NCBI GenBank assembly: GCA_012401045.1
Contig: GCA_012401045.1_4704.1
From: a phage
DNA: 64,000 nucleotides
Reading direction: 5' to 3' (one strand)
Shown here: positions 1-53,445 of the stretch, piece after piece
Layout of the letters: each line of letters starts with the position of its first letter
Position numbering within the stretch: the stretch's first letter is position 1
Program-made: the position numbers and the translations under genes
Notes under the pieces: model-generated
Told to the model about the DNA's origin: nothing
The model's input: the letters and a program-made list of their open reading frames with translations, nothing else
Database searches by the model: none

Positions 1-1674
1 GTAACGCATTGCCCAGCCGGTTTGTTCCCAGCTACCAGACAGAACACGATCGATGATTTCGTGACGAGCGACAACACGCTGAGACATCGTCATATCGGTA
101 CGGTCGAAGCTGTCTTCCCAAGCTTCTACGGTATCCGGGTTAGTGATGTTCATCATGTACAGATCGTCCATATCACGAATATCGTGACGGTGACCATCCT
201 GGTGGTTGTAGTGACCCAGCGGGATACGGTTACCGGTAGCGTAGACCAGCGGTTGGCCGTATTGATATTTCTTGCTGAAGCAACCCAGGGTAACATCATC
301 GAACGCACGGAAGAGGGCTTTGTAACCTTCGGAGATTTCACGGACTTCACCTTCAACTTTGCCCGTATAGATCTTCTCAGCCGCCGGGATCATACGCAGC
401 AGCCAGCTGTACTCACCTTCTTCCGGTACGTCGATAGAAATCAGCAGAGACGGATACAGTACCTGTTGCAGGAACTTGTAAATCTGCTCGTTGGTTTGAG
501 TAGACAGATCCAGCGGTGCGGTAACTTCCGGATCCAGTACCATCGCCAGAGCACCCGGGTTATGCGGACCAATACCACGGGCAGCGTTGCTGATTAAAGA
601 CTGTGCCCACGCCATACCGCTGTTCAGCGTAGCGATGGTGCCAATCAGACCCAACACGAAAGTGTTCGGTGTGAACGCATCCAGCTCCAGCGGGTAAGCG
701 CTGGTCATCACGTAACGCGGCTGGTATTGTACAGTCGGCGGTACCGGATAACCGTTAACCAGAACAGGGCCTTGGTTGAAGGTCGGGTTCTGCGGGCTGT
801 AAGTCAGGTCAATGTAACCGGTGGTGGCGACCAGACGCTGTTGACTATCGTAATCGCTCATCGCTTGACGGATGCGGTTAGAGATAGTTACAGTGATGTC
901 AGAACGCACAGGGTTACCAACAATATCGCTGTCCTGCATACCGCTGGTGTTGTACTGAACGCTGCTGATTGGCTGATCGCTTGCCATCATGCCCAGGTTG
1001 AACTGCGGCAGACCCAGTTTATCACCGAGACGGATTTCGATCGCGGTTTGGATTGCGTTATCTGCAGCAGACAGCAGGGTGGTTGCCAGATGCGCAGATT
1101 CAGCGGTGATTTCATTGGTCACCACAGCCAGACCAGCGATACGAACAGTACCGTTAGACTTACCGCCAATAGCTGAGTACATTGCCGCCATGACTTCGTT
1201 GATGAACGTACCGTTCAGGTTATCAACCCAGGTACGCGGTACCAGAATGTTACCATGCGGACCTTGTTCTTCACGACGCGGCAGCGGAGCCAGACCAGCA
1301 ACCAGCGGAAGCACATAACCAAAGAAGTGGTTATGGTCACCAACTTTTGCACCACTCATAACGACCAGGGTCGGATACGGTACGCTGTACTGGTTCGGGT
1401 CAACCGCAACAAAGATGAAGTCGTTTTTGAACTGGGTATCTTCCAGATATTTCTCCATCAGACGACGGAGATTCAGTACCTGCTCGGAGCCAGTATTACG
1501 GCTAATACGACGGCTCAGTGTACGGTTGATCGTACGCATCGTATGAGTTACTTTAGGCTGGCCAGCAAAATCTGCAGCGGTTTCCAGCGCCTCATCAGCA
1601 CGTTGTGCGGTGCGGGTTTCAGCTGCACGAATTTCTACATTATCGTTACCGTTATTACGTACGTCTAAGCCCAT
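1..1674 (-). CDS. chmA: Candidate chimallin (phage-nucleus shell protein), N-terminal 558 aa; the C-terminus runs off the window start
   Basis: The minus-strand frame is open from ATG 1674..1672 (SD AGAGGAA 7 nt upstream) to base 1. It is missing from the ORF track because no stop lies in the window. It starts MGLDVRNNGNDNVEIRAAETRTAQRADEALE. Codon bias is extreme (CGT, CTG, GGT, ACC, AAC). A TATATTACC promoter lies upstream and phuZ is ~8 kb away. Identity is inferred from size, expression signals and context, not from a motif. Confidence 0.6.
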   Translation of the reverse strand, partial: MGLDVRNNGNDNVEIRAAETRTAQRADEALETAADFAGQPKVTHTMRTINRTLSRRISRNTGSEQVLNLRRLMEKYLEDTQFKNDFIFVAVDPNQYSVPYPTLVVMSGAKVGDHNHFFGYVLPLVAGLAPLPRREEQGPHGNILVPRTWVDNLNGTFINEVMAAMYSAIGGKSNGTVRIAGLAVVTNEITAESAHLATTLLSAADNAIQTAIEIRLGDKLGLPQFNLGMMASDQPISSVQYNTSGMQDSDIVGNPVRSDITVTISNRIRQAMSDYDSQQRLVATTGYIDLTYSPQNPTFNQGPVLVNGYPVPPTVQYQPRYVMTSAYPLELDAFTPNTFVLGLIGTIATLNSGMAWAQSLISNAARGIGPHNPGALAMVLDPEVTAPLDLSTQTNEQIYKFLQQVLYPSLLISIDVPEEGEYSWLLRMIPAAEKIYTGKVEGEVREISEGYKALFRAFDDVTLGCFSKKYQYGQPLVYATGNRIPLGHYNHQDGHRHDIRDMDDLYMMNITNPDTVEAWEDSFDRTDMTMSQRVVARHEIIDRVLSGSWEQTGWAMRY

Positions 1675-1741
1675 TTGGGATTCCTCTTTTCTTAAACTTT
1701 ATTAAATGACGTCATTGAATCAGCTTCTACTCGCTCATTCA

Positions 1742-1777
1742 CCTAGGTAATATAACCCTGAAATTTTTTTCAATATT
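1742..1777 (-). promoter_or_regulatory. Early-type promoter, copy 1
   Basis: The minus strand reads AATATTGAAAAAAATTTCAGGGTTATATTACCTAGG. The core TATATTACC (1754..1746) is 72 nt upstream of ATG 1674. It aligns position-for-position with the copies at 30706..30741 and 53410..53445. Confidence 0.7.
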
Positions 1778-16378: not shown

Positions 16379-16413
16379 CATTGCCTTCCGCGAGTGTAAT
16401 CAGGAAGGTAATG
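16379..16413 (-). promoter_or_regulatory. 11-bp hairpin sequestering the SD of gene 15825..16376
   Basis: The minus strand reads CATTACCTTCC-N13-GGAAGGCAATG, then CA, then ATG. The stem has one G.U pair. Confidence 0.4.
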
Positions 16414-16481
16414 TAGGTTTATTTTAATCTCCATTTCGCGATGATATGACAGTCTTTATTACGTTTACCATCTGAGGGAGC

Positions 16482-29051: not shown

Positions 29052-29591
29052 TTACTGTTTGTTCGTGGCTTCACGAATGAAAATGACATCAGGATATTCT
29101 TGAGATTCAATGAATTCAGGATTACGATAACGACGAATATGACGCATCGTTGTACAAGCAAGTTTGTAAAGATGTTCCTCCTCACGTTGTGTTAATAACA
29201 TCAGTTGCGCGTCTGGAATCACGAATGGGAGTCTTTCATTCACGTATTCCCGAAGGTCATCGAGATCATCGTGATGAATGCCCTCTGAGAGCTTATATAA
29301 CGCTTCCAGCAATTCTAATCCACCGAACTGGTAACTTCCTATTGTCGTCTTAAACAATGCGCCAGAACGCGTGGTGGATGCTCTATCGGCGACATCGTAT
29401 TGTTCTAACATATATCCGTAGACCATGCTACGTCGATCCAGTGTATCCGTAACGAGATTACGCCACCGTTCCAGTCTTTCGAGCGCTTTGTCGATAGAGT
29501 AAACGATCATGCCATGTTCATCCAACTCTTCCGCAATACCCAATAGTTCATTGTTGTTAGGTTTTGCTGCACCGATAAGAAAAACACTCAT
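29052..29591 (-). CDS. Hypothetical protein (179 aa)
   Basis: Clean ORF with a stop/start overlap with the upstream gene at 29591. Confidence 0.7.
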   Translation of the reverse strand: MSVFLIGAAKPNNNELLGIAEELDEHGMIVYSIDKALERLERWRNLVTDTLDRRSMVYGYMLEQYDVADRASTTRSGALFKTTIGSYQFGGLELLEALYKLSEGIHHDDLDDLREYVNERLPFVIPDAQLMLLTQREEEHLYKLACTTMRHIRRYRNPEFIESQEYPDVIFIREATNKQ

Positions 29592-30004
29592 TACTCAAAC
29601 TCCTTATTCCAAAACTCGATTAATGAATCGAGCTGTTCCTTACTGGTTATCTCACCTCCCCTAACAAAATGAAATCGTTCTTGAATGGCGATCTTTTCAA
29701 GGATATCGGTAAGCAAATGACGGTGACAGAAATTTCCTGCAGGACAATAACACCCTAACACCACAACCGGATGGGAGAATAAAGCCAACCATTCCGGTGT
29801 ATGATCAACAAAGCTTTTGCGCATAAGCGCGTAGTAGCCTGTGGTATATTCATCCTCGGTTAACGTTTTTGATTTGATTCCTGTAACAAGTTCCCATGAA
29901 GGTGCGAAGAGTGGGTTACCTGTTTTCACCGTCGTGTCCAGTAGGAACGCTCGTGTGTCTGAAAGCCAACGATATTTGGCTAATTGAAGGGTGTATAAAA
30001 ACAC
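29591..30004 (-). CDS. DUF488/DUF4326-like protein
   Basis: 137 aa with a GTG start. LFAPSWELV...TEDEY...VVVLGCYCPAGNFCHRHLL matches the remembered DUF488 pattern (APS.eL ... LlC.E....CHR.l). Confidence 0.45.
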   Translation of the reverse strand: MFLYTLQLAKYRWLSDTRAFLLDTTVKTGNPLFAPSWELVTGIKSKTLTEDEYTTGYYALMRKSFVDHTPEWLALFSHPVVVLGCYCPAGNFCHRHLLTDILEKIAIQERFHFVRGGEITSKEQLDSLIEFWNKEFE

Positions 30005-30107: not shown

Positions 30108-30587
30108 TCAGTCTTTCAGCAGCTCAGCTGCATACGCACTGATGTTGTCGCGAATATGCTTAACCTGAGTTGTTGGGAAAGATTTCTTATACGCGGTGGT
30201 CAGGCGTCCGTAAACCTGTTTCTTCTCGTTAGAGCCGAAACCAACTTCAGCGCTACGTTGAACCGTTGCGGACACAACGTCTTTGCCCAGCGGCAGGGTT
30301 ACAGAAACAACGTCAACCTGCTTGTTATCCGCCATGAACTGCGCGCCAACGCGACCTACCGCCAGACCATGAGCCAGACCGATATCGGTGGTCAGTTTCT
30401 GTGCTTTTTCCAGGATTTCTTTTTCTTCCGGCGTTACCAGAGTACCCAGGAAATCACTGCCTAACTTCTGGCTACCAGATTCGTCCAGTTTAATACCAGC
30501 GGCGATTTTATCAGAAAGAGCCTGAACTTCCGGACGTACGTTAGAAGTGGTTTCAGTCGCTACGGTGGTTTCTACAGCTTCAGACAT
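30108..30587 (-). CDS. Highly expressed early-type protein of unknown function (159 aa, acidic N-terminus)
   Basis: Strong codon bias like the shell gene. It is a monocistronic unit bounded by TATATTACC promoter copy 2 and a terminator. No motif recognised. Confidence 0.8.
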   Translation of the reverse strand: MSEAVETTVATETTSNVRPEVQALSDKIAAGIKLDESGSQKLGSDFLGTLVTPEEKEILEKAQKLTTDIGLAHGLAVGRVGAQFMADNKQVDVVSVTLPLGKDVVSATVQRSAEVGFGSNEKKQVYGRLTTAYKKSFPTTQVKHIRDNISAYAAELLKD

Positions 30588-30705: not shown

Positions 30706-30741
30706 GTTAGGTAATATAGACCTCAACTTTTTTCCAATAAT
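30706..30741 (-). promoter_or_regulatory. Early-type promoter, copy 2
   Basis: The minus strand reads ATTATTGGAAAAAAGTTGAGGTCTATATTACCTAAC. The core (30718..30710) is 123 nt upstream of ATG 30587. The upstream half overlaps the stop of gene 30723..31523. Confidence 0.7.
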
Positions 30742-42237: not shown

Positions 42238-45200
42238 ATGGTAGATAAAACCCGTGTTGAGGGTGATGATAATTGGGACAACTGGGATGAAGACTTCTCC
42301 CTGGATCTCGATTTTAACGAACCCAAAGACGATCGTAAACCGATAACACGCTTTGCGATAGGAGCGGTTAAAGGTGCTGCTGAGGATCTTACTTCCTACG
42401 AAAGAATGAAGGAGATCGCCAGAAACGCATTGCCTAAGGGCTACAGCGACGGTATGGATCTTATTGATTCCGCCGTCGGATCCACGAAGGAACTATACAA
42501 TGAAGCCGTTCGTGACGTTCTTCCTAAGGTCCAAAGCTCAAAACGGTTAGCCGCACAACTGACCAAGAAATACCGTGCGAGCATGCCCGATTTCTCGAAG
42601 AAAATTCTTGAGCAATGGGAGCGAGAAGCCAAGGAAGAAGACGAACGTAAACAAGCTGAAGAAACCCTTCGTCAACGCATGGCGAGCGCGGGGGACGATG
42701 AGATCGCCCGCAAGGTTGCCGAGGCATTAGGCGAATCAGCAAACCAAAGCGCGGATCAGTTCGCTGAACAGCAAGCGAAAGAGAGTATCCGTGACGATAT
42801 CGCTGACAAACGGTACGCTGTAACCAACAAACAAATGAGTGCGATGCAAGAAGGCGTCGCCAAGATGGTTGGTTTCAACAATGAATTCGCTGCACGCTAC
42901 ATGCGTAAAAGCCTGGAACTGAAATATCGTTCCTTAGCGATTCAACGTGCAAGTTTTGATCAGCATAAAAAGTTAGCCGAAGTCTATATCGGTTTATTAC
43001 AAAACATCCAGAAGAATACGGCTTTACCTGATGCGGCTAAAGCAAAAATGTCGGAAGAATTCCGCCGTAGCGCGTACCAACGTTTCTTTGGTAATGCGTT
43101 AGATGCGATGAGTTCTTTCGAGAACCGTTTCTTTGCCGATGTTAAGAAAAACCTTGCCACCAACGCATTAGGTGCTTTAAAAGGCGTCGTGTCTGGCGCA
43201 AACGATGCGTTATACGGTTTAAACGAAGCACGTGACTCGATATCCATGATGGATGGGATGGGGTCAGATGGCGATATTAAGGAAATGCAAGGAAAGATGT
43301 TGGGTCAGTTCATTGGCTCAACTGTCGCACCATGGATGGCTAATAAAGGCAGGATGGCGTTACGCGATTTAGCAAAACGTCACCCCAATGCTAAATTCGC
43401 TAGCGCGTTAAAAGCCGTGGATCAAGGTGGTGAGGCTGCCGCTTACACAACGCGTAATCTCGGTAAACTGCTCCAGGAAGATATTCGTAAGAACGAATTC
43501 AATCTTAGCGATCCGTTTTACAAGCAATTGTTACGCGGTGCAGGGCGTTGGGCGTTCAACATGGACAGCGGACGTAACTTCCGCGTGATGAACGACACCG
43601 CTGAAACACTGGCAGAGCAAACATCTTTCGACGGTTTAACCTACCGCAGCATCAACGAGGTTATTCCAGGCTTTCTTGCACGCATTCTGAAAAGCAGTGA
43701 AGGCATCCGCACCGGAAACAGCGATCCTGACTACGAGGTCTATGACGGCATCAGCGGGCAATTCGTGTCTCAGCGCACGCGTGAGCAAAGCGTCAACGAC
43801 ACGCTGTTTAACAAACGTTCATTTGGTTATTACGCCAGCCGTTTCAACGAGGTTATCTCGGTCATCGATCCCGATAAGCAATTATCGGAAAAAGCCAGGA
43901 AGGCACTGGCTAAACAGTTGGCACGAGATAGCGACGCGAACATCGCATTCGACCCGGCTCGTTTTACGGATGAAAGCAACTTCGATCGTAGTATCGACCG
44001 TGACGCTATTAAGGAACTTTCCACGTACTTTCGTGACCGTTACGGTATTCGTGACGATATCAACGATAAGGGGGAACGTCATCAGGTCATTGGAAACCGC
44101 GGGCAATATTACACGGAACGTAACCGAGCCGATCTTCGTTACGGTAATCTGAAATCTTTACAACCGGATATCCAGCGTAACCTTAACCTGCTGAAACGTA
44201 CTGGTGACGTCCAATATCTGGAACGGATCGGGATTGTAACGAGAAATAGCGACGGAAGTTACTCGGTTAATCACGATAGGTATTTCTCTGAAATCGATCG
44301 GTACATCGACCGGCCGGAGTACGCTGACCGCGGCGATGTTAATACGCGATTAACCGCTCAGGAAACAAGAGCGCTGGCGCTGGGTTATCGTGACGCAAAA
44401 CCATCAGCTGGTGACGTCCAAAATGTCGGCCTGCCGAACATCGGTCGTAAGGCTGCTGGAACAGTAACCGTTGATGAAAACATCGGCTACGATAAATGGT
44501 GGAACGACACAGGTGTTATCACCACATCGCTTGAAGAACAGAATCGAGCGTGGCAAGAGCTTTATCTCGAGGCGTTGTCCGAAGCATCCGAACAACGTGT
44601 TGAAATGCTTGCGCTGCTGAAAGCCATTTCTGAGAAAGACTGGTCTAATAACGTTTCGCTGGATGGTGAAGATGTACCTGAAGGTACAGCACCCATTTCA
44701 TTTATCGATCGTGCCAAACAAAAACTCGGCGGACGCAACCTGTTTAAAGGCGGCCGCAATCTCCTCTGGAAAGGAATTAAAAATACCGCACGTTTAGGTG
44801 TTAAAGGCGCACGCTGGGGTGCAGAACGCACGTTGGGTAGTTTGGTAAATTCTGGCCGACGCATTATCAATTTCAACCGCTTCGTGTTCGGCGCATTATC
44901 CAAGGTTGATCAGGTTCCGTTTGACATTTACGTTAAAGGGGAATCCCAACCACGCATATTGGTTGCTAAACTTCGTCAGGGGTTATACTTCGATGAAGCG
45001 ACAGGAAAAGCCGTAAAACGGATGAAGGATATCAAAGGCCCACTCGTTGATGCGGATGGAAACATCGTAATCAGCAACGAGGATATCGAGAAAGGGTTGG
45101 TCACTCGCGCTGGTCGTGCCTTTGAGAATTCAGGACTTAAAGCATGGGCACGTGAAGGTCTTAATGGAATAACGACGGCATTAAGTCTCCCACGGATGTT

Positions 45201-48200
45201 AAAACGCGGTGCGGTTGAGATCTACAAACAGCTTGACAAAACACCCGACGTTTACGTCAAGGGAGAATCAACGCCTCGTCTGTTGTCCATGGTGTTAGCA
45301 GCGGGTGGGTATTTCCGTCGCTCGGATGGACAAGTCATCAAAAATCTTGAAGACATCGATGGTGATGTTGTTGATGCACAAGGTAACGTCGTACTTACGC
45401 TTGCCGACATGCAGAAAGGACTTGTCGATAAATACGGTAAAGCGATTCGTCGTTTAAAAGAAAAGCTCATCAACTTCGGTGTAAAAGCTTTTACGTTACC
45501 GTTAACGTTGCTACGTAAGACAAAGGACATCCTTAAAGCCCTTCCAGGTAAAACCGTTAACGGTCTACGGCGGATGGGATTAAATTTCCAATCACCTGAC
45601 GCGTTACTGGTGGGAACAACGTCGAGCATGGTAGATCGCCTCGATGCTATTTACCAGCTTCTTGACCAGCGTATGCCGGGAGGTGATAAGGATTACCGCG
45701 ATTGGAATGGCGATGGTGTTCGAGAAGGATCGTTGGAAGACCTGAAACGTAAGCGTGAAGCCAAGGAAAACGGTAAGGATGACATCGGCAAAGATTCCAA
45801 TAAAGGAGAAGAAAAGGAGAAGAAACGAGGGTTACTCGGAAGCCTTTTCGATATGCTCGGTGATACCGCAATAGGTAAACGTCTCATGGCGAGTCCGCTT
45901 GGAAAAATTCTGGGTGGTCTTGGGGCGGTGTTAAGCGGCGGTGCGTCGTTAACTGGGTTGTTGGGCAAAGGTCTCATTAGAGGAACCGGCGCGCTGGTCA
46001 AGGGAGGACTAAGTGCGGCAGGATGGTTAGGACGTGGTGCGTTAATGGCGGGTGGGGCCGCGTTGAACGCCGTTGGTGGGTTATCGGGATTAGGTGCATT
46101 CCTCATCTCACCTGTTGGGCTTGCTATCGCTGGCGGTGCGTTGGCTGCTTATGCTGGATGGAAGATCTATCAGCATTTCGCCGAGAAGCCTGACCCGATG
46201 CAGAAGCTCCGTCTTATTGCATACGGTGCAAAAGGGGACGATAAAGACTTCAATAAGAAGCTGCTTGCGACAGAAACATACCTCACCGACCATGTGGTTA
46301 TGACCGGGGATACCATCGGATTCGATCCGAAAGCCGACTCGGAAAAGATTCTCGAAATCTGGGAATTGTCTCTGGAAGATTCCGACCGAATGAACGAATG
46401 GAAACGCTGGTATCTGCATCGTTTTATTCCTGTTTTCGCTCGCGCGTACAAACTCTGGAAAGAGCATATGCCGGACGAGAAGAAATACATGGAAATGGAT
46501 AAATATCCGAACGGTGAGAACAAAGTGAAATGGTCGGAAGCGTTTATCTGGCCTTCCGATAGTCCTGATGGTCCGTATTACGTCGAAGCTAACCCGTTGG
46601 GTTCTTCTGGTGCGACGCGTTATATTGCTGGTCAAGACGTCAAAACCTTGATGCTGAAACAACTCGAAGCCATCAAGAAAGAGTACCAGAATCAGATTAA
46701 GCAATACACTCATGATGAGGCTATTGCTGATTGGTCACGGATGTCTGACACACAACGTAAATCCGTTGCGCCTAACGCATTACGTGGTCAGAAAGCGTCA
46801 TTACGTTTTAACGATAAACGTTACAACAGCGCTGGTGCTAAAGGACGACAGAAACTGGATGCAACCGCGGTTATTGAAAGCGTAGACCGCCGTGGTAGGA
46901 AATGGGTTGCCGGTGGATACATCGATGAACTCACCAGTCTTCGTGTTCGTGCGTACGGTATTAAGGTTCCGTTGTTAAGTCAGATAAAAGTGCTGATGGA
47001 ACTTGAAGACGCTGTAGAACCTGGCGTTGTCGCTGAAGGTAAAGGTGTTAAATACGGTGGCGATCTTGTCGCGCTCTACAAGAAATTCGCGACGAAGTTC
47101 GGAAGAGACGTTAACAGCAAGCATGATCAGGATATCTGGTTTGCTTGGATGAACAACCGTTTCCTGCCCGTCTTTTTAACCTATTACCAACAAGTTAGCG
47201 ACATGGGCGGTCAAGGACTTCTGTCCGACGTGGTACAGAACCTGAAAGACAGCCAACGCTGGGAAATCGGTGAAGCACTTGTCGCAACGCAATACCGTGA
47301 TGAGAAAGGTACACTGCAGCCTGTATGGTCCTGGAATAGTTGTGGTTTCTCCGGTACTGAAGCTAACACCACCAGCAGTTCAACAAAGAGCCAACTCGAT
47401 CTGTTAAAAGAATATGCGGATAAAGAGAAGGTTCGTGAGAAGAACGCGGAAGCATCGCAAGAGGATACCGATAAATTATCGAAGATCCAAGAGCTGATGA
47501 TGAAGCAGGCTGGGTACGAGAAGAAAGACGGTGTCTGGCAGAAGAAATCTCGCATTACCGGCGGGATGAGTAACTCCGAAGCGAATTACAACCCCAATAG
47601 GAATAAGGTCGGTGAAAGCAGCTTTACGGCTTCGGCTACTTCCAATGCGGGATTAGGGTCAACCGGCGATCTTACCGGATTGCCTAACATGGGCTTACAG
47701 AAACCTGCAATGGGACCAGGTCCTGAAGCTGGACGTCGTGCGCTTGTTAAATCCGCTGTAAAACGCGGCATTACCGATCCGATGGAAATGGCGATGTTCC
47801 TTGCGAACATCGAACATGAATCGGGGAACTACACTCACGTACGTGAGGGGAACTATAAGACACCAGAGCGTCTTAAACAGGTCTTCCCTTACAAATTCCG
47901 TGATGTGCAGGATGCCGCACAGACGATCAGCATGGGTCCGGAAGTGGTATTCGAACGTGTGTATGGTAATCGTAAAGATCTCGGAAACACACAGAAAGGA
48001 GACGGGGCGAAGTATTTAGGACGTGGCTTCATTCAGGTTACCGGTAAAGCTAACTACGCTCGTCTGTCCAAGACCTTGAATAAGGATCTTGTCAGCGATC
48101 CGACCTACCTGGAAACGCCGGAAGGTGCAGCGGAAGGTAGTGTCGCATGGTGGCTCAACCGAGGTAACGTATTACGCGATCCCGCAAAACGGGGTGACGT

Positions 48201-48903
48201 ACGCCAAGTTCGTTATCTAGTTAACGGTGGCTATAACGGATTACGTGATGTTGAACAACGTTCTGCATATTGGATTCAGGCAGCTAAGAATGGCACCCTG
48301 AAGAAAATGATGGACGAGTTATCAGGGTCAACATCAGACGATCAAGCTGAAGGACCGACCACTGCCGAACAGGTGAAGAACGAAGCAGCACAAGAGGCAA
48401 ACGGAACACCTGCTGTAAGCAACGATCCGCAAGCCCCAGTATCTTCTACCACCCCTGAAGCTAAACCGTCTGCGGCTGCCGGGACGGCCCCAGCACCTGG
48501 GGAAGCATCACCAACGCCTGGAAGTTTCGAAACAGCAAAAGCCGCGGCAGGACAACCGACATCAACTCCAGCACCTAGCGATTTGCCGTCAAACCCAGGC
48601 GCAAATCGAGGGATATCGGTTCCGAATACACCTGCACAGGTTGCGCAGTCTGCGACACAAACGTCGGCTGCAAGTGAGAACTTCTACGGTAGCGCAGGTG
48701 AAATTCTCCGACAGCAGCTGACCACACAGCAGAACATCGAGAAGAACACCGGTAGAACGAATGAACTTATTTCGGAATTAATCCAAGCCGTTAAGGGTTC
48801 TTCTATCGGTAAGGGTTCTGCAAGTCCTTCTCAACAACAGACGATGTCACTACCTAATCGTCCGCAAGGAATCTCTCCAACACGGACAAGGTACGCACAG
48901 TAG
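42238..48903 (+). CDS. Giant tape-measure-like virion protein with a C-terminal muramidase domain (phiKZ gp181-like by context)
   Basis: ~2221 aa from ATG 42238 (GGAGG 5 nt upstream). The track's GTG start at 42145 lacks an SD. Features are coiled-coil-like regions, an internal 68-aa duplication, a Gly-rich hydrophobic segment, a GH19-type domain and a P/A/T/S-rich tail. Confidence 0.8.
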   Translation: MVDKTRVEGDDNWDNWDEDFSLDLDFNEPKDDRKPITRFAIGAVKGAAEDLTSYERMKEIARNALPKGYSDGMDLIDSAVGSTKELYNEAVRDVLPKVQSSKRLAAQLTKKYRASMPDFSKKILEQWEREAKEEDERKQAEETLRQRMASAGDDEIARKVAEALGESANQSADQFAEQQAKESIRDDIADKRYAVTNKQMSAMQEGVAKMVGFNNEFAARYMRKSLELKYRSLAIQRASFDQHKKLAEVYIGLLQNIQKNTALPDAAKAKMSEEFRRSAYQRFFGNALDAMSSFENRFFADVKKNLATNALGALKGVVSGANDALYGLNEARDSISMMDGMGSDGDIKEMQGKMLGQFIGSTVAPWMANKGRMALRDLAKRHPNAKFASALKAVDQGGEAAAYTTRNLGKLLQEDIRKNEFNLSDPFYKQLLRGAGRWAFNMDSGRNFRVMNDTAETLAEQTSFDGLTYRSINEVIPGFLARILKSSEGIRTGNSDPDYEVYDGISGQFVSQRTREQSVNDTLFNKRSFGYYASRFNEVISVIDPDKQLSEKARKALAKQLARDSDANIAFDPARFTDESNFDRSIDRDAIKELSTYFRDRYGIRDDINDKGERHQVIGNRGQYYTERNRADLRYGNLKSLQPDIQRNLNLLKRTGDVQYLERIGIVTRNSDGSYSVNHDRYFSEIDRYIDRPEYADRGDVNTRLTAQETRALALGYRDAKPSAGDVQNVGLPNIGRKAAGTVTVDENIGYDKWWNDTGVITTSLEEQNRAWQELYLEALSEASEQRVEMLALLKAISEKDWSNNVSLDGEDVPEGTAPISFIDRAKQKLGGRNLFKGGRNLLWKGIKNTARLGVKGARWGAERTLGSLVNSGRRIINFNRFVFGALSKVDQVPFDIYVKGESQPRILVAKLRQGLYFDEATGKAVKRMKDIKGPLVDADGNIVISNEDIEKGLVTRAGRAFENSGLKAWAREGLNGITTALSLPRMLKRGAVEIYKQLDKTPDVYVKGESTPRLLSMVLAAGGYFRRSDGQVIKNLEDIDGDVVDAQGNVVLTLADMQKGLVDKYGKAIRRLKEKLINFGVKAFTLPLTLLRKTKDILKALPGKTVNGLRRMGLNFQSPDALLVGTTSSMVDRLDAIYQLLDQRMPGGDKDYRDWNGDGVREGSLEDLKRKREAKENGKDDIGKDSNKGEEKEKKRGLLGSLFDMLGDTAIGKRLMASPLGKILGGLGAVLSGGASLTGLLGKGLIRGTGALVKGGLSAAGWLGRGALMAGGAALNAVGGLSGLGAFLISPVGLAIAGGALAAYAGWKIYQHFAEKPDPMQKLRLIAYGAKGDDKDFNKKLLATETYLTDHVVMTGDTIGFDPKADSEKILEIWELSLEDSDRMNEWKRWYLHRFIPVFARAYKLWKEHMPDEKKYMEMDKYPNGENKVKWSEAFIWPSDSPDGPYYVEANPLGSSGATRYIAGQDVKTLMLKQLEAIKKEYQNQIKQYTHDEAIADWSRMSDTQRKSVAPNALRGQKASLRFNDKRYNSAGAKGRQKLDATAVIESVDRRGRKWVAGGYIDELTSLRVRAYGIKVPLLSQIKVLMELEDAVEPGVVAEGKGVKYGGDLVALYKKFATKFGRDVNSKHDQDIWFAWMNNRFLPVFLTYYQQVSDMGGQGLLSDVVQNLKDSQRWEIGEALVATQYRDEKGTLQPVWSWNSCGFSGTEANTTSSSTKSQLDLLKEYADKEKVREKNAEASQEDTDKLSKIQELMMKQAGYEKKDGVWQKKSRITGGMSNSEANYNPNRNKVGESSFTASATSNAGLGSTGDLTGLPNMGLQKPAMGPGPEAGRRALVKSAVKRGITDPMEMAMFLANIEHESGNYTHVREGNYKTPERLKQVFPYKFRDVQDAAQTISMGPEVVFERVYGNRKDLGNTQKGDGAKYLGRGFIQVTGKANYARLSKTLNKDLVSDPTYLETPEGAAEGSVAWWLNRGNVLRDPAKRGDVRQVRYLVNGGYNGLRDVEQRSAYWIQAAKNGTLKKMMDELSGSTSDDQAEGPTTAEQVKNEAAQEANGTPAVSNDPQAPVSSTTPEAKPSAAAGTAPAPGEASPTPGSFETAKAAAGQPTSTPAPSDLPSNPGANRGISVPNTPAQVAQSATQTSAASENFYGSAGEILRQQLTTQQNIEKNTGRTNELISELIQAVKGSSIGKGSASPSQQQTMSLPNRPQGISPTRTRYAQ
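44923..45450 (+). repeat. Internal protein-level duplication (two 68-aa units, 108 codons apart)
   Basis: DIYVKGESQPRILV...GPLVDADGNIVISNEDIEKGLVTRAGRA (44923..45126) matches DVYVKGESTPRLLS...GDVVDAQGNVVLTLADMQKGLVDKYGKA (45247..45450). Confidence 0.8.
45828..46172 (+). other. Glycine-zipper-like hydrophobic segment of the giant protein
   Basis: GLLGSLFDMLG...GGLGAVLSGGASLTGLLGKGL...GGAALNAVGGLSGLGAFLISPVGLAIAGGALAAYAGW. Confidence 0.6.
47740..48300 (+). other. GH19 (chitinase-like) lysozyme domain of the giant protein
   Basis: MFLANIEHESGNY (EHESG at 47812..47826) ... LGNTQKGDGAKYLGRGFIQVTGKANY ... AWWLN. Confidence 0.7.
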
Positions 48904-48913
48904 TCATTAGTTA

Positions 48914-48934
48914 AGGGCGGGAATCTCCCGCCCT
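48914..48934 (+). terminator. 9-bp stem-loop between the giant gene and the next gene (weak terminator or attenuator)
   Basis: AGGGCGGGA atc TCCCGCCCT, followed by CTTCTT. Confidence 0.45.
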
Positions 48935-48952
48935 CTTCTTGAGGAATGTTAC

Positions 48953-51094
48953 ATGGGTATTCTTGTTCAAAACGCCCTAATCACCAAACAAGCGTTTTTA
49001 TTACCAGGCGATAGCAGCACTCTGAGCGCCGACATGATTAAAGCGAGACATACACCGTATTCCTACGATAACGTCGATGATACCACCTTAGGTGGGAACT
49101 GGGTGCTTAACCCGCCGCCGCAATATACAAAATTTGCCGACATCAAAGAACGCCGACGTGCGGTTATGCCGGGATCAACGGGCATGGGTCGAGGCTATAG
49201 TGAAAGCATTAACAGCTTTAAAGAGGTCGTTACATTACGATTCGGTAAACCTCGCTTTACAGGCGCAAGTATCTTCTTTACTGATTTCTACGATGCGGAT
49301 GTTGCCGTAACGGTTAAAACCGGTCGCGATCCCGGTATTCTTTATTACGCAGCCAAAGCGTATACCACCGTTCTTTCTTACCTCACACCTCTACCCTACT
49401 TGTATATGGTTGGACGTATCGGTCGATATTTCCTGGGTAAGCCTACCAGTCAATATTACTATCAAGTACCAACCATGCACGTGTATTGGGCGTCTTTCCA
49501 AACACTGGTAAACCAAACAGCGATAAACATGGGTCTTATCGCCGGTGCCGGTAAAGATAAAGGCTATGTGGAAGAAGGGGGTACCGTACTCCACCAATAT
49601 TCAATCGGTGGTCAGAACGTTGAAGAATTCATCAACTACGCCTCTAAGACGCTACCGGGGATTTATAAGAAAGGTGGTGGGATCGATATCTACCAGATCG
49701 CAACACGACGTCAGCGCATACAGAACGCATGGGTACGTCGTATTCAATCCATGATGGAAAACGATTACTCGTCTTACGAGGAGTTCTGGAACGATCTTGA
49801 TAAACGACTTGATAGCGGAGCATTTCCATCGGATGTAACCGGCCGTACGTTAACGCAGTATCTCGCCGACACGCAGAAGTCTGCTGTTTACAGTGCGACA
49901 GCTGGTGATAATAAACAAACGATGGACGACCTTTTATTCGGAAGGGCCTCATACACCAACAAGGACGCTGATGCCAACTTCAATGTCTCTGCAGTCACCT
50001 CCGACGGCGGTACGTCAACACAAAGTCAGGGTACAACAGCCAATGTCGGTAATTCGACATCAGGGACAACGCAAGCTTCAACAGCAGCATCGACGGCTGG
50101 AGGTGCGAACGTACAGAGCAAAGGAATCGGGCAAACGAACGCAGCCGAAGAAGCTACATTTCTTGATCTGATGGATGCTGAACTGGCTGACGGTGCCCAG
50201 TTTATCAGTTTTCGAGTCGATTCTGTCACCAGTGTAACCGAAACGTTTTCAAACAGCGCTTCAGAAAGTTCTATTGCACAGACGATGAATAGCCGTGCAC
50301 AAGCGAACATCGAACGTCGTTTCACCCTTTCCGGTGGTAATACAGGTTGGGCTGTACTAGACGAAGCAATCAAAGCCGGTTCCGATCTCGTCAACGGTGC
50401 TATTTCCGGGATGGGTCTGGATGGTATTTTTGGGGCCTTCATGGGTTCCGGCTTCGCTGACATTCCGAAATTCTATTCTGGATCGTCAGTAAGTCTACCG
50501 CGCGCCGATCTGACGATGGAATTGCGTTCCTGGAGTGGGGATCGTTGGTCGATCTTTACGAACCTCATGGTGCCTCTTTTAGCTATCCTTGCAGGTGGTT
50601 TACCTCAGGCTACCGGTAAATCGTCCTACGGGATGCCGTTCATGTGTGAATGTTATATCCCTGGTAAAGTCCAGATTAAAATGGGTCTTATCGACAACAT
50701 CACTGTGACGCGTCACGTTGGAAACGTGCCATCAACACGTGAGCGGTTACCGTTGGGTATCGATGTCAGCTTCAGCGTTTATGACCTGTCGTCCATCGTC
50801 GCCATGCCGATCACAACGACGGCCGCATCGATCGCAAAATTGGATCCTCGTGGCTTCTTAAGTGATCTTCTTGCTGACGATACCCCACTCAACAACTATC
50901 TTGCTGTATTATCAGCATTGACGCTTACGGAACAAGTTTACATGATTCCTGATTTAAGTCGTCGCATGCATAAAACCATGGCTGATATCGATAGTTTCTG
51001 GAGCAAAGGTAATTTTGCTAGCTGGTTGTCTGACACCATGCCTGGCAGGATAGCATCAGGGCTGTTATGGAAACGTACAGAACGTCCGTTCTGA
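48953..51094 (+). CDS. Large hypothetical virion-type protein (713 aa)
   Basis: SD GAGGAA. It has an S/T/G/Q-rich low-complexity linker and follows the tape-measure-like gene. Confidence 0.75.
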   Translation: MGILVQNALITKQAFLLPGDSSTLSADMIKARHTPYSYDNVDDTTLGGNWVLNPPPQYTKFADIKERRRAVMPGSTGMGRGYSESINSFKEVVTLRFGKPRFTGASIFFTDFYDADVAVTVKTGRDPGILYYAAKAYTTVLSYLTPLPYLYMVGRIGRYFLGKPTSQYYYQVPTMHVYWASFQTLVNQTAINMGLIAGAGKDKGYVEEGGTVLHQYSIGGQNVEEFINYASKTLPGIYKKGGGIDIYQIATRRQRIQNAWVRRIQSMMENDYSSYEEFWNDLDKRLDSGAFPSDVTGRTLTQYLADTQKSAVYSATAGDNKQTMDDLLFGRASYTNKDADANFNVSAVTSDGGTSTQSQGTTANVGNSTSGTTQASTAASTAGGANVQSKGIGQTNAAEEATFLDLMDAELADGAQFISFRVDSVTSVTETFSNSASESSIAQTMNSRAQANIERRFTLSGGNTGWAVLDEAIKAGSDLVNGAISGMGLDGIFGAFMGSGFADIPKFYSGSSVSLPRADLTMELRSWSGDRWSIFTNLMVPLLAILAGGLPQATGKSSYGMPFMCECYIPGKVQIKMGLIDNITVTRHVGNVPSTRERLPLGIDVSFSVYDLSSIVAMPITTTAASIAKLDPRGFLSDLLADDTPLNNYLAVLSALTLTEQVYMIPDLSRRMHKTMADIDSFWSKGNFASWLSDTMPGRIASGLLWKRTERPF

Positions 51095-52298: not shown

Positions 52299-52811
52299 TT
52301 AAACTTCTTCGTTTTCTGAACCTAATGATTCAGCATCTGGATCGTCAACAGGAATGGTTGCATCAAAATACCGTTTCGTATGCGTGGTTGTATATCCTAC
52401 GCTATCTGTGATGGAAATCGTAAACGTGACTTCCCTTGCACGGATTAAGCGTAGTTTATTCATGAAGTTACGGAACGGCATCGATCCCCGATTCAACTCC
52501 TTAATGACGTTTCCCCGAATACTGGAAATGTCTTTATTCGTTTTATCAGGGTGTCGTTTCTTCACATCACGCATATGTCGGGTAATATACGAATTGAGCT
52601 GATTTGCGCCGATCCCTCTCTCCGTATAAATCTGCAACAGGAACTCCGTAAGGAAATCCTGTCTACCCGTAGGCGTCCAGAAATTGTTACCGTGATTGTA
52701 GTTAGTCGCTCGTCCTCGATTGCTTTGAGGATTTTCATCATCGCTTTCATCACGACGCTTAAGCGGATTAATGCGTGCGCGGAAAGAGACTTCATTATAT
52801 TTATTTGTCAT
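52299..52811 (-). CDS. Hypothetical basic protein (170 aa; start at MTNKYNEV)
   Basis: ATGA overlap with the upstream gene at 52808..52811. Second gene of the promoter-copy-3 unit. Confidence 0.65.
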   Translation of the reverse strand: MTNKYNEVSFRARINPLKRRDESDDENPQSNRGRATNYNHGNNFWTPTGRQDFLTEFLLQIYTERGIGANQLNSYITRHMRDVKKRHPDKTNKDISSIRGNVIKELNRGSMPFRNFMNKLRLIRAREVTFTISITDSVGYTTTHTKRYFDATIPVDDPDAESLGSENEEV

Positions 52812-53323
52812 AATACACCAGTGTACTGACTGAGTGCGAAGGTTAGGAGTTCGCAACAGTCTCTCGCTAGTTTCCTTGTTTTGCGTAATCCATAAGCCGC
52901 ATCCAAATCGTCACGTTCCGCCAGCGCGTCTAACCACGTCGCAAGTATGCGTCCATACTCGATAACGTCACGCATGAGAACGTCGAACCGGATAACACGA
53001 CCATCGGCATCAGCAAGCCAACGATTGAACGTGATTTGTGGTGCTAGTATTGCATATGTTCTCTCCTCTAATGCGATTATGTTTATGTTGCCTTCGTTAT
53101 CGAACGCTTGATGCCAACGGCGAAGGTCAAGCATCAACGACTCAGCGTCCATATACCACAACGGTAAATACGTTTTACGTGCAACGCGTATATCGTAGAT
53201 GTTGTGAACCCAGGACGTTGTTTTGTAAAGCAACAAGAGTTCGTTTAACCGTTGCCTATCATCTTGAAACGTCTTCCTTTTATAACGTTGGAACGCACGC
53301 CTCAAGAAAAAGCGATGTAACAT
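52808..53323 (-). CDS. Hypothetical protein (171 aa), first gene of an early-type unit
   Basis: ATG 53323 lies 91 nt downstream of the promoter copy 3 core. Confidence 0.7.
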   Translation of the reverse strand: MLHRFFLRRAFQRYKRKTFQDDRQRLNELLLLYKTTSWVHNIYDIRVARKTYLPLWYMDAESLMLDLRRWHQAFDNEGNINIIALEERTYAILAPQITFNRWLADADGRVIRFDVLMRDVIEYGRILATWLDALAERDDLDAAYGLRKTRKLARDCCELLTFALSQYTGVL

Positions 53324-53409
53324 GGCATCACCTATGTATCATTCTTGCAGGCATCAATGAAGCCATCACAAGAAGGTAACGTTATACGTCGCCTTCATGA
53401 CTGTCATCA

Positions 53410-53445
53410 TGAAGGTAATATAGTCCTGTTATTTTTTTCAATACG
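53410..53445 (-). promoter_or_regulatory. Early-type promoter, copy 3
   Basis: The minus strand reads CGTATTGAAAAAAATAACAGGACTATATTACCTTCA, with the core at 53422..53414. Confidence 0.7.

Follow-up and report, generated by a model that had tools for sequence, protein, structure and literature searches.

Early promoters read by virion RNA polymerases have been known as a kind since 2014, and those of phiKZ are reportedly read by its virion RNA polymerase, as Ceyssens et al. are said to have described in that year. In the phiKZ group, early promoters are AT-rich, highly conserved elements of about 10 nt that are centered near −10 (PMC7598289), and the description of the phiKZ early promoters was refined in PMC8244752 and PMC10914365. 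In phiKZ and phiR1-37, transcription begins 6 nt past the element, and the AR9 counterpart of this motif reads AAATATATATTAT-(6N)-G, with the G at +1; the AR9 early promoter is thereby likewise extended and AT-rich near −10, with a G six bases downstream (PMC5312081). It is also read by an injected multisubunit polymerase, although AR9 differs from Escherichia phage vB_EcoM_Goslar (hereafter Goslar) in forming no nucleus, in its uracil-containing DNA, and in a different motif sequence that possesses neither an AG nor an A-tract module. Predicted early-promoter consensus sequences for N1M2, OBP, and 201phi2-1, together with TATATTAC for phiKZ, have been tabulated (PMC7058600, Table 2); the three motifs were obtained computationally, by motif discovery upstream of open reading frames (ORFs), and comprise about 31 sites per genome (PMC7058600). 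The N1M2 consensus, TBYAWWWWWTTTCARRYAKATATTATYWAAGTGWA, and the similar OBP motif already contain an upstream tract (..AWWWWWTTTCARRYAKATATTAT..TG), as does the 201phi2-1 consensus (PMC7058600). In the literature searched, we found no description or map of Goslar promoters, and the Goslar studies there used knock-downs and RNA-seq. Whereas the phiKZ start sites were mapped, the Goslar start sites given below are predictions from sequence.

Here, we analyzed a 64,000-nt stretch of phage DNA (the window), the first 8 kb of which is 98.3% identical to Goslar, a chimallivirus, that is, a nucleus-forming jumbo phage. The chimallin of the window is 98.9% identical to the Goslar nuclear shell protein, and the Goslar annotation covering the window includes genes for RNA polymerase beta subunits, among them gp196, the virion-polymerase subunit of Goslar that was tagged in PMC10541120. 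From the beginning of Goslar gp204, the tail-fibre/lysozyme gene, to gp203 (window ~44193–48953), the offset of window against Goslar coordinates shifts by 2048 nt, indicating that the window phage does not have about 2 kb that Goslar has inside or beside gp204. Two Goslar-like metagenome genomes were also identified, IMGVR_UViG_3300011560_000001 (237.5 kb, ~95% identical) and IMGVR_UViG_3300045988_173921 (183 kb, 96–98% identical). As the window matched no public genome exactly, it derives from a further isolate of this clade.

The initial annotation of the window described a promoter-like element in three ungapped minus-strand copies, and their sequences were found exactly at 1777..1742, 30741..30706, and 53445..53410. 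The consensus as written, TATTGRAAAAAA-N4-AGG-N2-TATATTACCT, is 31 nt long rather than the 32 nt claimed, and the distances to the start codons (at 1674, 30587, and 53323) are 71, 122, and 90 nt rather than 72–123 nt. The pattern matches three times in the 64-kb window, still only three times when up to three mismatches are allowed, and 0.00 times in 100 dinucleotide-preserving shuffles. An ungapped comparison anchored on the first T of TATATTAC, which is exact in all three copies, revealed that the copies are alike only from about −24 to +16; the sequences flanking them are unrelated, so that they represent a conserved signal rather than duplicated segments, and a recent duplication as their origin is ruled out. 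Three bases past the element lies a conserved TGA (TATATTACCT-N3-TGA) that had been overlooked and that includes the predicted start site. According to the Goslar annotation and the ORFs of the window, copies 1, 2, and 3 sit upstream of chimallin (chmA), gp214, and gp200, respectively. The features are as follows, where the starts were placed by the rule that initiation occurs 6 nt past TATATTAC.

1745..1775, minus strand: copy 1, predicted early promoter of chmA
1754..1747, minus strand: core TATATTAC of copy 1, at −14 to −7
1740, minus strand: predicted chmA start, the G of the conserved TGA, 6 nt past TATATTAC
1..1674, minus strand: chimallin (nuclear shell protein, chmA), N-terminal 558 codons, truncated by the window edge
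30709..30739, minus strand: copy 2, predicted early promoter upstream of gp214
30718..30711, minus strand: core TATATTAC of copy 2
30704, minus strand: predicted start of gp214 to gp216, with a leader of 117 nt
30108..30587, minus strand: gp214, 159 aa, followed by gp215 (DUF488-N3a) and gp216
53413..53443, minus strand: copy 3, predicted early promoter upstream of gp200
53422..53415, minus strand: core TATATTAC of copy 3
53408, minus strand: predicted start of gp200 to gp202, with a leader of 85 nt
52808..53323, minus strand: gp200, 171 aa, the gene behind copy 3
16401..16415, minus strand: candidate fourth, weaker promoter, TACATTACCTTCCTG, with core and start-site motif only

Relative to its predicted start, copy 1 extends from −35 to −5 and is composed of TATTG (−35 to −31), A7 (−30 to −24), TTTC (−23 to −20), and AGG (−19 to −17), followed by the core. 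Comparison with phiKZ revealed 42 occurrences of TATATTAC in that genome. About 24–27 of these immediately precede genes on the coding strand and share a conserved context of about 40 nt that ends in TG six bases downstream, in agreement with the statement in the initial annotation that this is the core of the phiKZ early promoters. A weight matrix trained on 24 phiKZ early promoters only scored copy 1 at 30.5 bits, the best value in the window, copy 3 at 22.2 bits, and copy 2 at 18.5 bits, compared with 0.1 bits for the next site in the window and 13.6 bits for the best of 20 shuffled windows. Being built from phiKZ alone, the matrix is an independent test of membership, and it places the three copies at the top of the window; their proposed promoter-like nature is supported.

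The resemblance is closest at the chimallin gene. The phiKZ chimallin promoter (P054), aatgAAAAAAAtttGAGattTATATTACtaaatTGaat, matches copy 1, attgAAAAAAAtttCAGGgtTATATTACctaggTGaat, at 32 of the 41 compared positions with the same spacing, and the two have in common TATATTAC, the TG six bases downstream, a T-rich patch, and (G/C)AG, the phiKZ promoter carrying its A7-TTT-(G/C)AG block at the spacing seen in copy 1. In both phiKZ and Goslar, the promoter is followed by chmA and then by the gene for the non-virion polymerase beta-prime subunit, and the predicted chmA leader in the window is 66 nt, equal to that predicted for phiKZ. Among eight further chimalliviruses, the core and the TG were also found upstream of chimallin in seven (PhiPA3, RAY, Eowyn, RSL2, SA002, Noxifer, and Proteus phage 10), in the form TATAT(T/C)AC followed by N5-TG, LucasX being the sole divergent one. 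In six of these seven, a tract rich in A or A/T, followed by TTT/TTA and CA/AG, further precedes the core with unchanged spacing; this tract is A7 in PhiPA3 and RAY and A5 in Proteus phage 10 and Noxifer, and a scan of IMG/VR revealed the A-tract form in several uncultured jumbo phage contigs. Copy 1 also fits the N1M2 consensus except at one position (A-AAAAA-TTT-CAGG-GT-T-ATATTAC-CTAGG-TG-AA), the core ending in ATTAT in N1M2 and OBP and in ATTAC in the Goslar-type copies. The occurrence of corresponding upstream parts in the phiKZ chimallin promoter, in other chimalliviruses, and in the published consensus sequences refutes the earlier suggestion that TATTG-A7 and AGG are specific to this phage lineage. 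For copies 2 and 3, we also considered whether they are positional orthologs of the phiKZ A-tract promoters P031 and P185, which have similar neighborhoods; the downstream genes are non-homologous, and this assignment was rejected. The gp215 protein matches phiKZ gp151, and gp202 weakly matches phiKZ gp174, both of which are encoded elsewhere in the phiKZ genome.

A family scan covered the whole Goslar genome, in which the complete 31-nt pattern has only three occurrences. When a single core mismatch was tolerated, a larger family emerged, with the consensus tttCACGrc-TAYATTACYT-N3-TGA. Up to three mismatches to TTCACGNNTAYATTACYTNNNTGA give twelve Goslar sites. All of these are located on the minus strand, each oriented like the gene that follows it; hits with four or five mismatches are as frequent as in shuffled sequence. 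The predicted start precedes the next annotated start codon by 25–152 nt at 11 of the 12 sites, and the twelfth, at Goslar 49732, lies inside an annotated 62-codon ORF, the next gene beginning 205 nt past its predicted start. The 12 predicted starts fall at Goslar positions 2553, 15053, 43252, 49718, 86691, 113783, 142786, 160777, 166055, 172964, 201930, and 226681, of which the final three correspond to window positions 1740, 30704, and 53408. The RefSeq annotation of this genome, which is about 92% coding, places ten sites wholly between genes; of the remaining two, one shares sequence with the final codons of gp213 and the other is the site in the 62-codon ORF. The genome-wide motif scan that had been proposed for this element thus returned 12 Goslar sites, 10 of them intergenic, and it also showed that the three copies are not the whole family; as they account for only 3 of the 12 sites, the initial interpretation was incomplete. 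The three copies, like the 12 Goslar sites as a whole, all carry the TG at the spacing expected of a start. What this comparison shows directly is that the copies belong to the sequence family, how its members are distributed over the genome, and that they are conserved across genera.

Within the Goslar family, the three copies are the members with the TATTGRAAAAAA...AGG upstream half, while the others display TAAYnC...tttCACG. The sites without the A-tract differ between the two phages, reading TAAYCC..TTTCACGRC in Goslar and TTCAAAC..TTTAAACAG in phiKZ, and the Goslar core is longer (TAYATTACYT-N3-TGA). The family also differs in size: about 12 predicted promoters were identified in Goslar as opposed to the 28–32 reported for phiKZ, suggesting that weaker or different early promoters may exist. 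Goslar members precede chmA and gp247 (phiKZ gp055), gp175 (phiKZ gp068), and gp040-gp039 (phiKZ gp123), and phiKZ early promoters occur at the same three places, the gp055, gp068, and gp123 loci. In four Goslar-clade genomes that are 95–98% identical, the elements and their leaders are invariant, and the gp213 coding sequence beside copy 2 has many substitutions.

Two other routes to the family were less informative. A search for over-represented 8–12-mers of Goslar recovered no AT-rich promoter word, only codon-like words and a C/G-rich terminator hairpin, and a first matrix built from Goslar sites was over-fitted, recovering only its own seeds; the family was defined instead by the mismatch scan with its shuffles and by the phiKZ-trained matrix. 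The hairpin, CCCTCCTCCAACCCGTAAGGGAAGGAGGAG, is the most over-represented 10–12-mer of Goslar, with about nine copies. Two of these lie at or beside an annotated terminator or gene 3′ end, and the hairpin is therefore probably a terminator, resembling in type the conserved phiKZ terminator motif (PMC10914365).

Based on these comparisons, we consider it very probable that the phage's own injected multisubunit virion RNA polymerase uses the three elements as early promoters; what we infer here is which polymerase reads them, where exactly transcription starts, and when gp214 and gp200 are expressed. The enzyme, which the capsid carries and which enters the cell together with the DNA, would recognize a layout in which TATATTAC occupies −14 to −7, AG(G) about −19 to −17, a T-rich patch about −23 to −21, and A7 −30 to −24, and would initiate at the conserved G six bases past TATATTAC, that is, at window positions 1740, 30704, and 53408. 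Right after injection, these promoters would switch on chimallin and the gene for a non-virion polymerase subunit that follows it, gp214–216, and gp200–202, in a phase of early transcription that would precede any phage protein synthesis and would not need the host polymerase. The three copies form an A-tract-bearing subclass of the 12-member Goslar family. The genes for the nucleus and the non-virion polymerase that lie behind family members are ones that the injected enzyme must express.

The spacing between TATATTAC and the start relies on the statement in PMC5312081 and on the agreement between predicted and reported phiKZ leaders: when applied to phiKZ, the rule gives leaders of mostly 27–52 nt, and the typical phiKZ leader is reported as 31–40 nt (PMC8244752). 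In Goslar, chmA RNA is present by 5 min post infection and is also made from the early vesicle under ChmA knock-down (PMC10541120). The sole published statement on the Goslar chmA start that we found, a figure legend of that report taken by itself, has the chmA 'TSS sequence' begin 91 nt upstream of the start codon, a point that falls within the A-tract, 25 nt upstream of our predicted chmA start, and that would conflict with the early-promoter model if it is a true chmA start. The same legend gives 91 nt for the next gene, where this is the whole intergenic gap, so that the figure may reflect a choice of display.

Three other explanations were weighed against the virion-polymerase reading. 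In the first, the upstream half, TATTG-A7...AGG, is a separate regulator site or a DNA-bending signal, and the copies form a regulon of their own within the early class. The 24 nt upstream of the core are 59% identical to the phiKZ A-tract promoters and 49% identical to the nine Goslar siblings, the three copies cluster with the phiKZ sites, and phiKZ, too, divides into A-tract and TTCAAAC...AAACAG groups, the former preceding chmA and the non-virion polymerase genes gp068 and gp121–123. However, the Goslar gp175 and gp040 promoters are intermediate, and the classes are therefore not sharply separated; furthermore, the genes behind copies 2 and 3 share no family with the genes behind phiKZ A-tract promoters, and the consensus sequences in print do not divide the family into separate motifs (PMC7058600). 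We regard such a separate module as possible but less likely than not.

In the second explanation, which we consider improbable, the elements are middle or late promoters of the non-virion phage polymerase, or dual-use sites read by both enzymes. Dual use has precedents, given that phiKZ chimallin is transcribed from a primary early start and also from a secondary one that displays a middle-promoter motif (PMC8244752) and that continuously expressed AR9 genes carry both promoter types (PMC7598289), and the strong codon optimization of gp214 and chimallin suggests sustained high expression. Such promoters look different, however: phiKZ late promoters consist of TATG at the start with no further upstream conservation (PMC7598289), and the middle promoters of only a weak AT-rich/TACT motif (PMC8244752), whereas the elements described here are a strongly conserved block of 31–40 nt that matches the early class. 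At the three predicted starts (AGGTGA, AACTGA, and TCATGA), TATG is absent, and about 30 nt upstream are strongly conserved. A separate middle promoter that overlaps the elements, like the one reported for phiKZ chimallin, may also exist.

In the third and by far the least credible explanation, the elements are host sigma-70 promoters read by E. coli RNA polymerase as infection begins, with TTGAAA as −35 and TATATT as −10, for although TTGAAA/TTGGAA and TATATT are each hexamer-like and the upstream A-tract recalls UP elements, the hexamers lie 13 bp apart instead of the required 16–18, a consensus scan calls none of the three elements, the other nine Goslar family members have no TTG at that position, the same motif occurs in phiKZ, whose infection needs no host polymerase (PMC7598289, PMC5312081), and Goslar's own virion polymerase accompanies the injected DNA inside a vesicle (PMC10541120). 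The likeness to sigma-70 promoters with UP elements is one of analogy only, in that an AT-rich −10-like hexamer is combined with an upstream A-tract, which could bend the DNA or contact the polymerase. To our knowledge, no sigma factor is known for the virion polymerase.

Under the preferred reading of the elements as virion-polymerase promoters, copies 2 and 3 would drive genes other than chimallin. The A-tract half of copy 2 overlaps the final codons and the stop codon of gp213, and the gene that follows, gp214, stands out in codon usage. Measured as the fraction of E. coli optimal codons across the 59 ORFs of the window, gp214 ranks first (0.764), above chimallin, which is second (0.733), and above tail sheath, in line with the claim that two of the three genes are the most codon-optimized in the window; gp200, with average usage, ranks 35 of 59. 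The gp214 protein gave no Pfam or PDB match and belongs only to PHROG families of unknown function (best phrog_9746), and it is probably very abundant. Its neighbor gp215 (window 29591–30004, minus strand), which has a Pfam DUF488-N3a match and is 44% identical to phiKZ gp151, is among the few well-conserved small genes common to the Goslar-type phage and phiKZ.

Copy 3 is located in a divergent intergenic region common to gp200 and gp199, and for gp200, too, neither Pfam nor PDB returned a match. The 3′ end of copy 3 and the predicted start belonging to it are both overlapped by a 9-bp inverted repeat, CCTTCATGA-N6-TCATGAAGG (53392–53415, minus strand). The 5′ arm of the repeat lies mostly upstream of +1, so that the repeat would act on DNA and not in the mRNA, and one relative displays an A-to-G change in the 3′ arm. 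The weaker site at 16401..16415 is situated between the divergent genes gp225 and gp224, 52 nt ahead of the gp225 start codon, and has a counterpart at Goslar position 187639. It possesses neither the A-tract/AGG nor the CACG upstream half, did not rank among the best hits of the phiKZ-trained matrix, and may represent an early promoter that is weak or subject to different regulation.

The leader of chmA contains a further feature. At +25 of the predicted leader (window 1716..1705, minus strand) lies a perfect 12-nt palindrome, AATGACGTCATT, and perfect palindromes of at least 12 nt were found in six of nine chimallivirus chimallin leaders, five of them at +19 to +29. The palindromes read TTCTTGATCAAGAA in phiKZ, TACTTGATCAAGTA in PhiPA3, and ACATTAGCTAATGT in RAY and Proteus phage 10, and that of SA002, AATTACCATGGTAATT, is located at +3. 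Each was significant against shuffles (P ≤ 0.02), and their sequence varies by lineage while their position is kept. Long palindromes are not general in early leaders, as the other Goslar and phiKZ early-promoter leaders do not have them. The chimallin-leader palindrome could serve as an operator bound by a dimeric protein or form a small hairpin in the RNA. For RNA structure, the three predicted leaders gave unremarkable z-scores of −1.3, −1.4, and −2.2.

These observations can be extended into a broader reading, which we put forward as speculative and on balance doubtful: two classes of chimallivirus early promoter may predate the split between phiKZ-like and Goslar-like phages, with the A-tract as a functional module and the chimallin-leader palindrome as a further control point. 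The class with A7 at −30 to −24 would have been kept before chimallin, and in phiKZ also before the non-virion polymerase genes, whereas the other class would have no tract. The A-tract might act as a bend or contact that raises output or as a site for a co-injected factor. If this is true, the A-tract would provide a second tier of control within 'early' transcription, and the perfect palindrome at +19 to +29 of the chimallin leader would tune the amount of nuclear shell protein.

The predicted Goslar-type promoters are a newly described example of an already known promoter type. They provide a sequence-level map of predicted early starts for Goslar-type phages, the main E. coli model of the phage nucleus and the early infection vesicle, and both the predicted starts and the predicted leaders of 66, 117, and 85 nt can be tested directly and can inform the design of guides, reporters, and engineered phages. 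The gp214 gene, which combines the top share of optimal codons with one of these predicted promoters, deserves attention. Finally, the chimallin proteins of phiKZ and Goslar are only about 20–25% identical and yet their promoters are nearly the same, which suggests that few features of the family are as well conserved as the sequence preference of the injected polymerase for its promoters.
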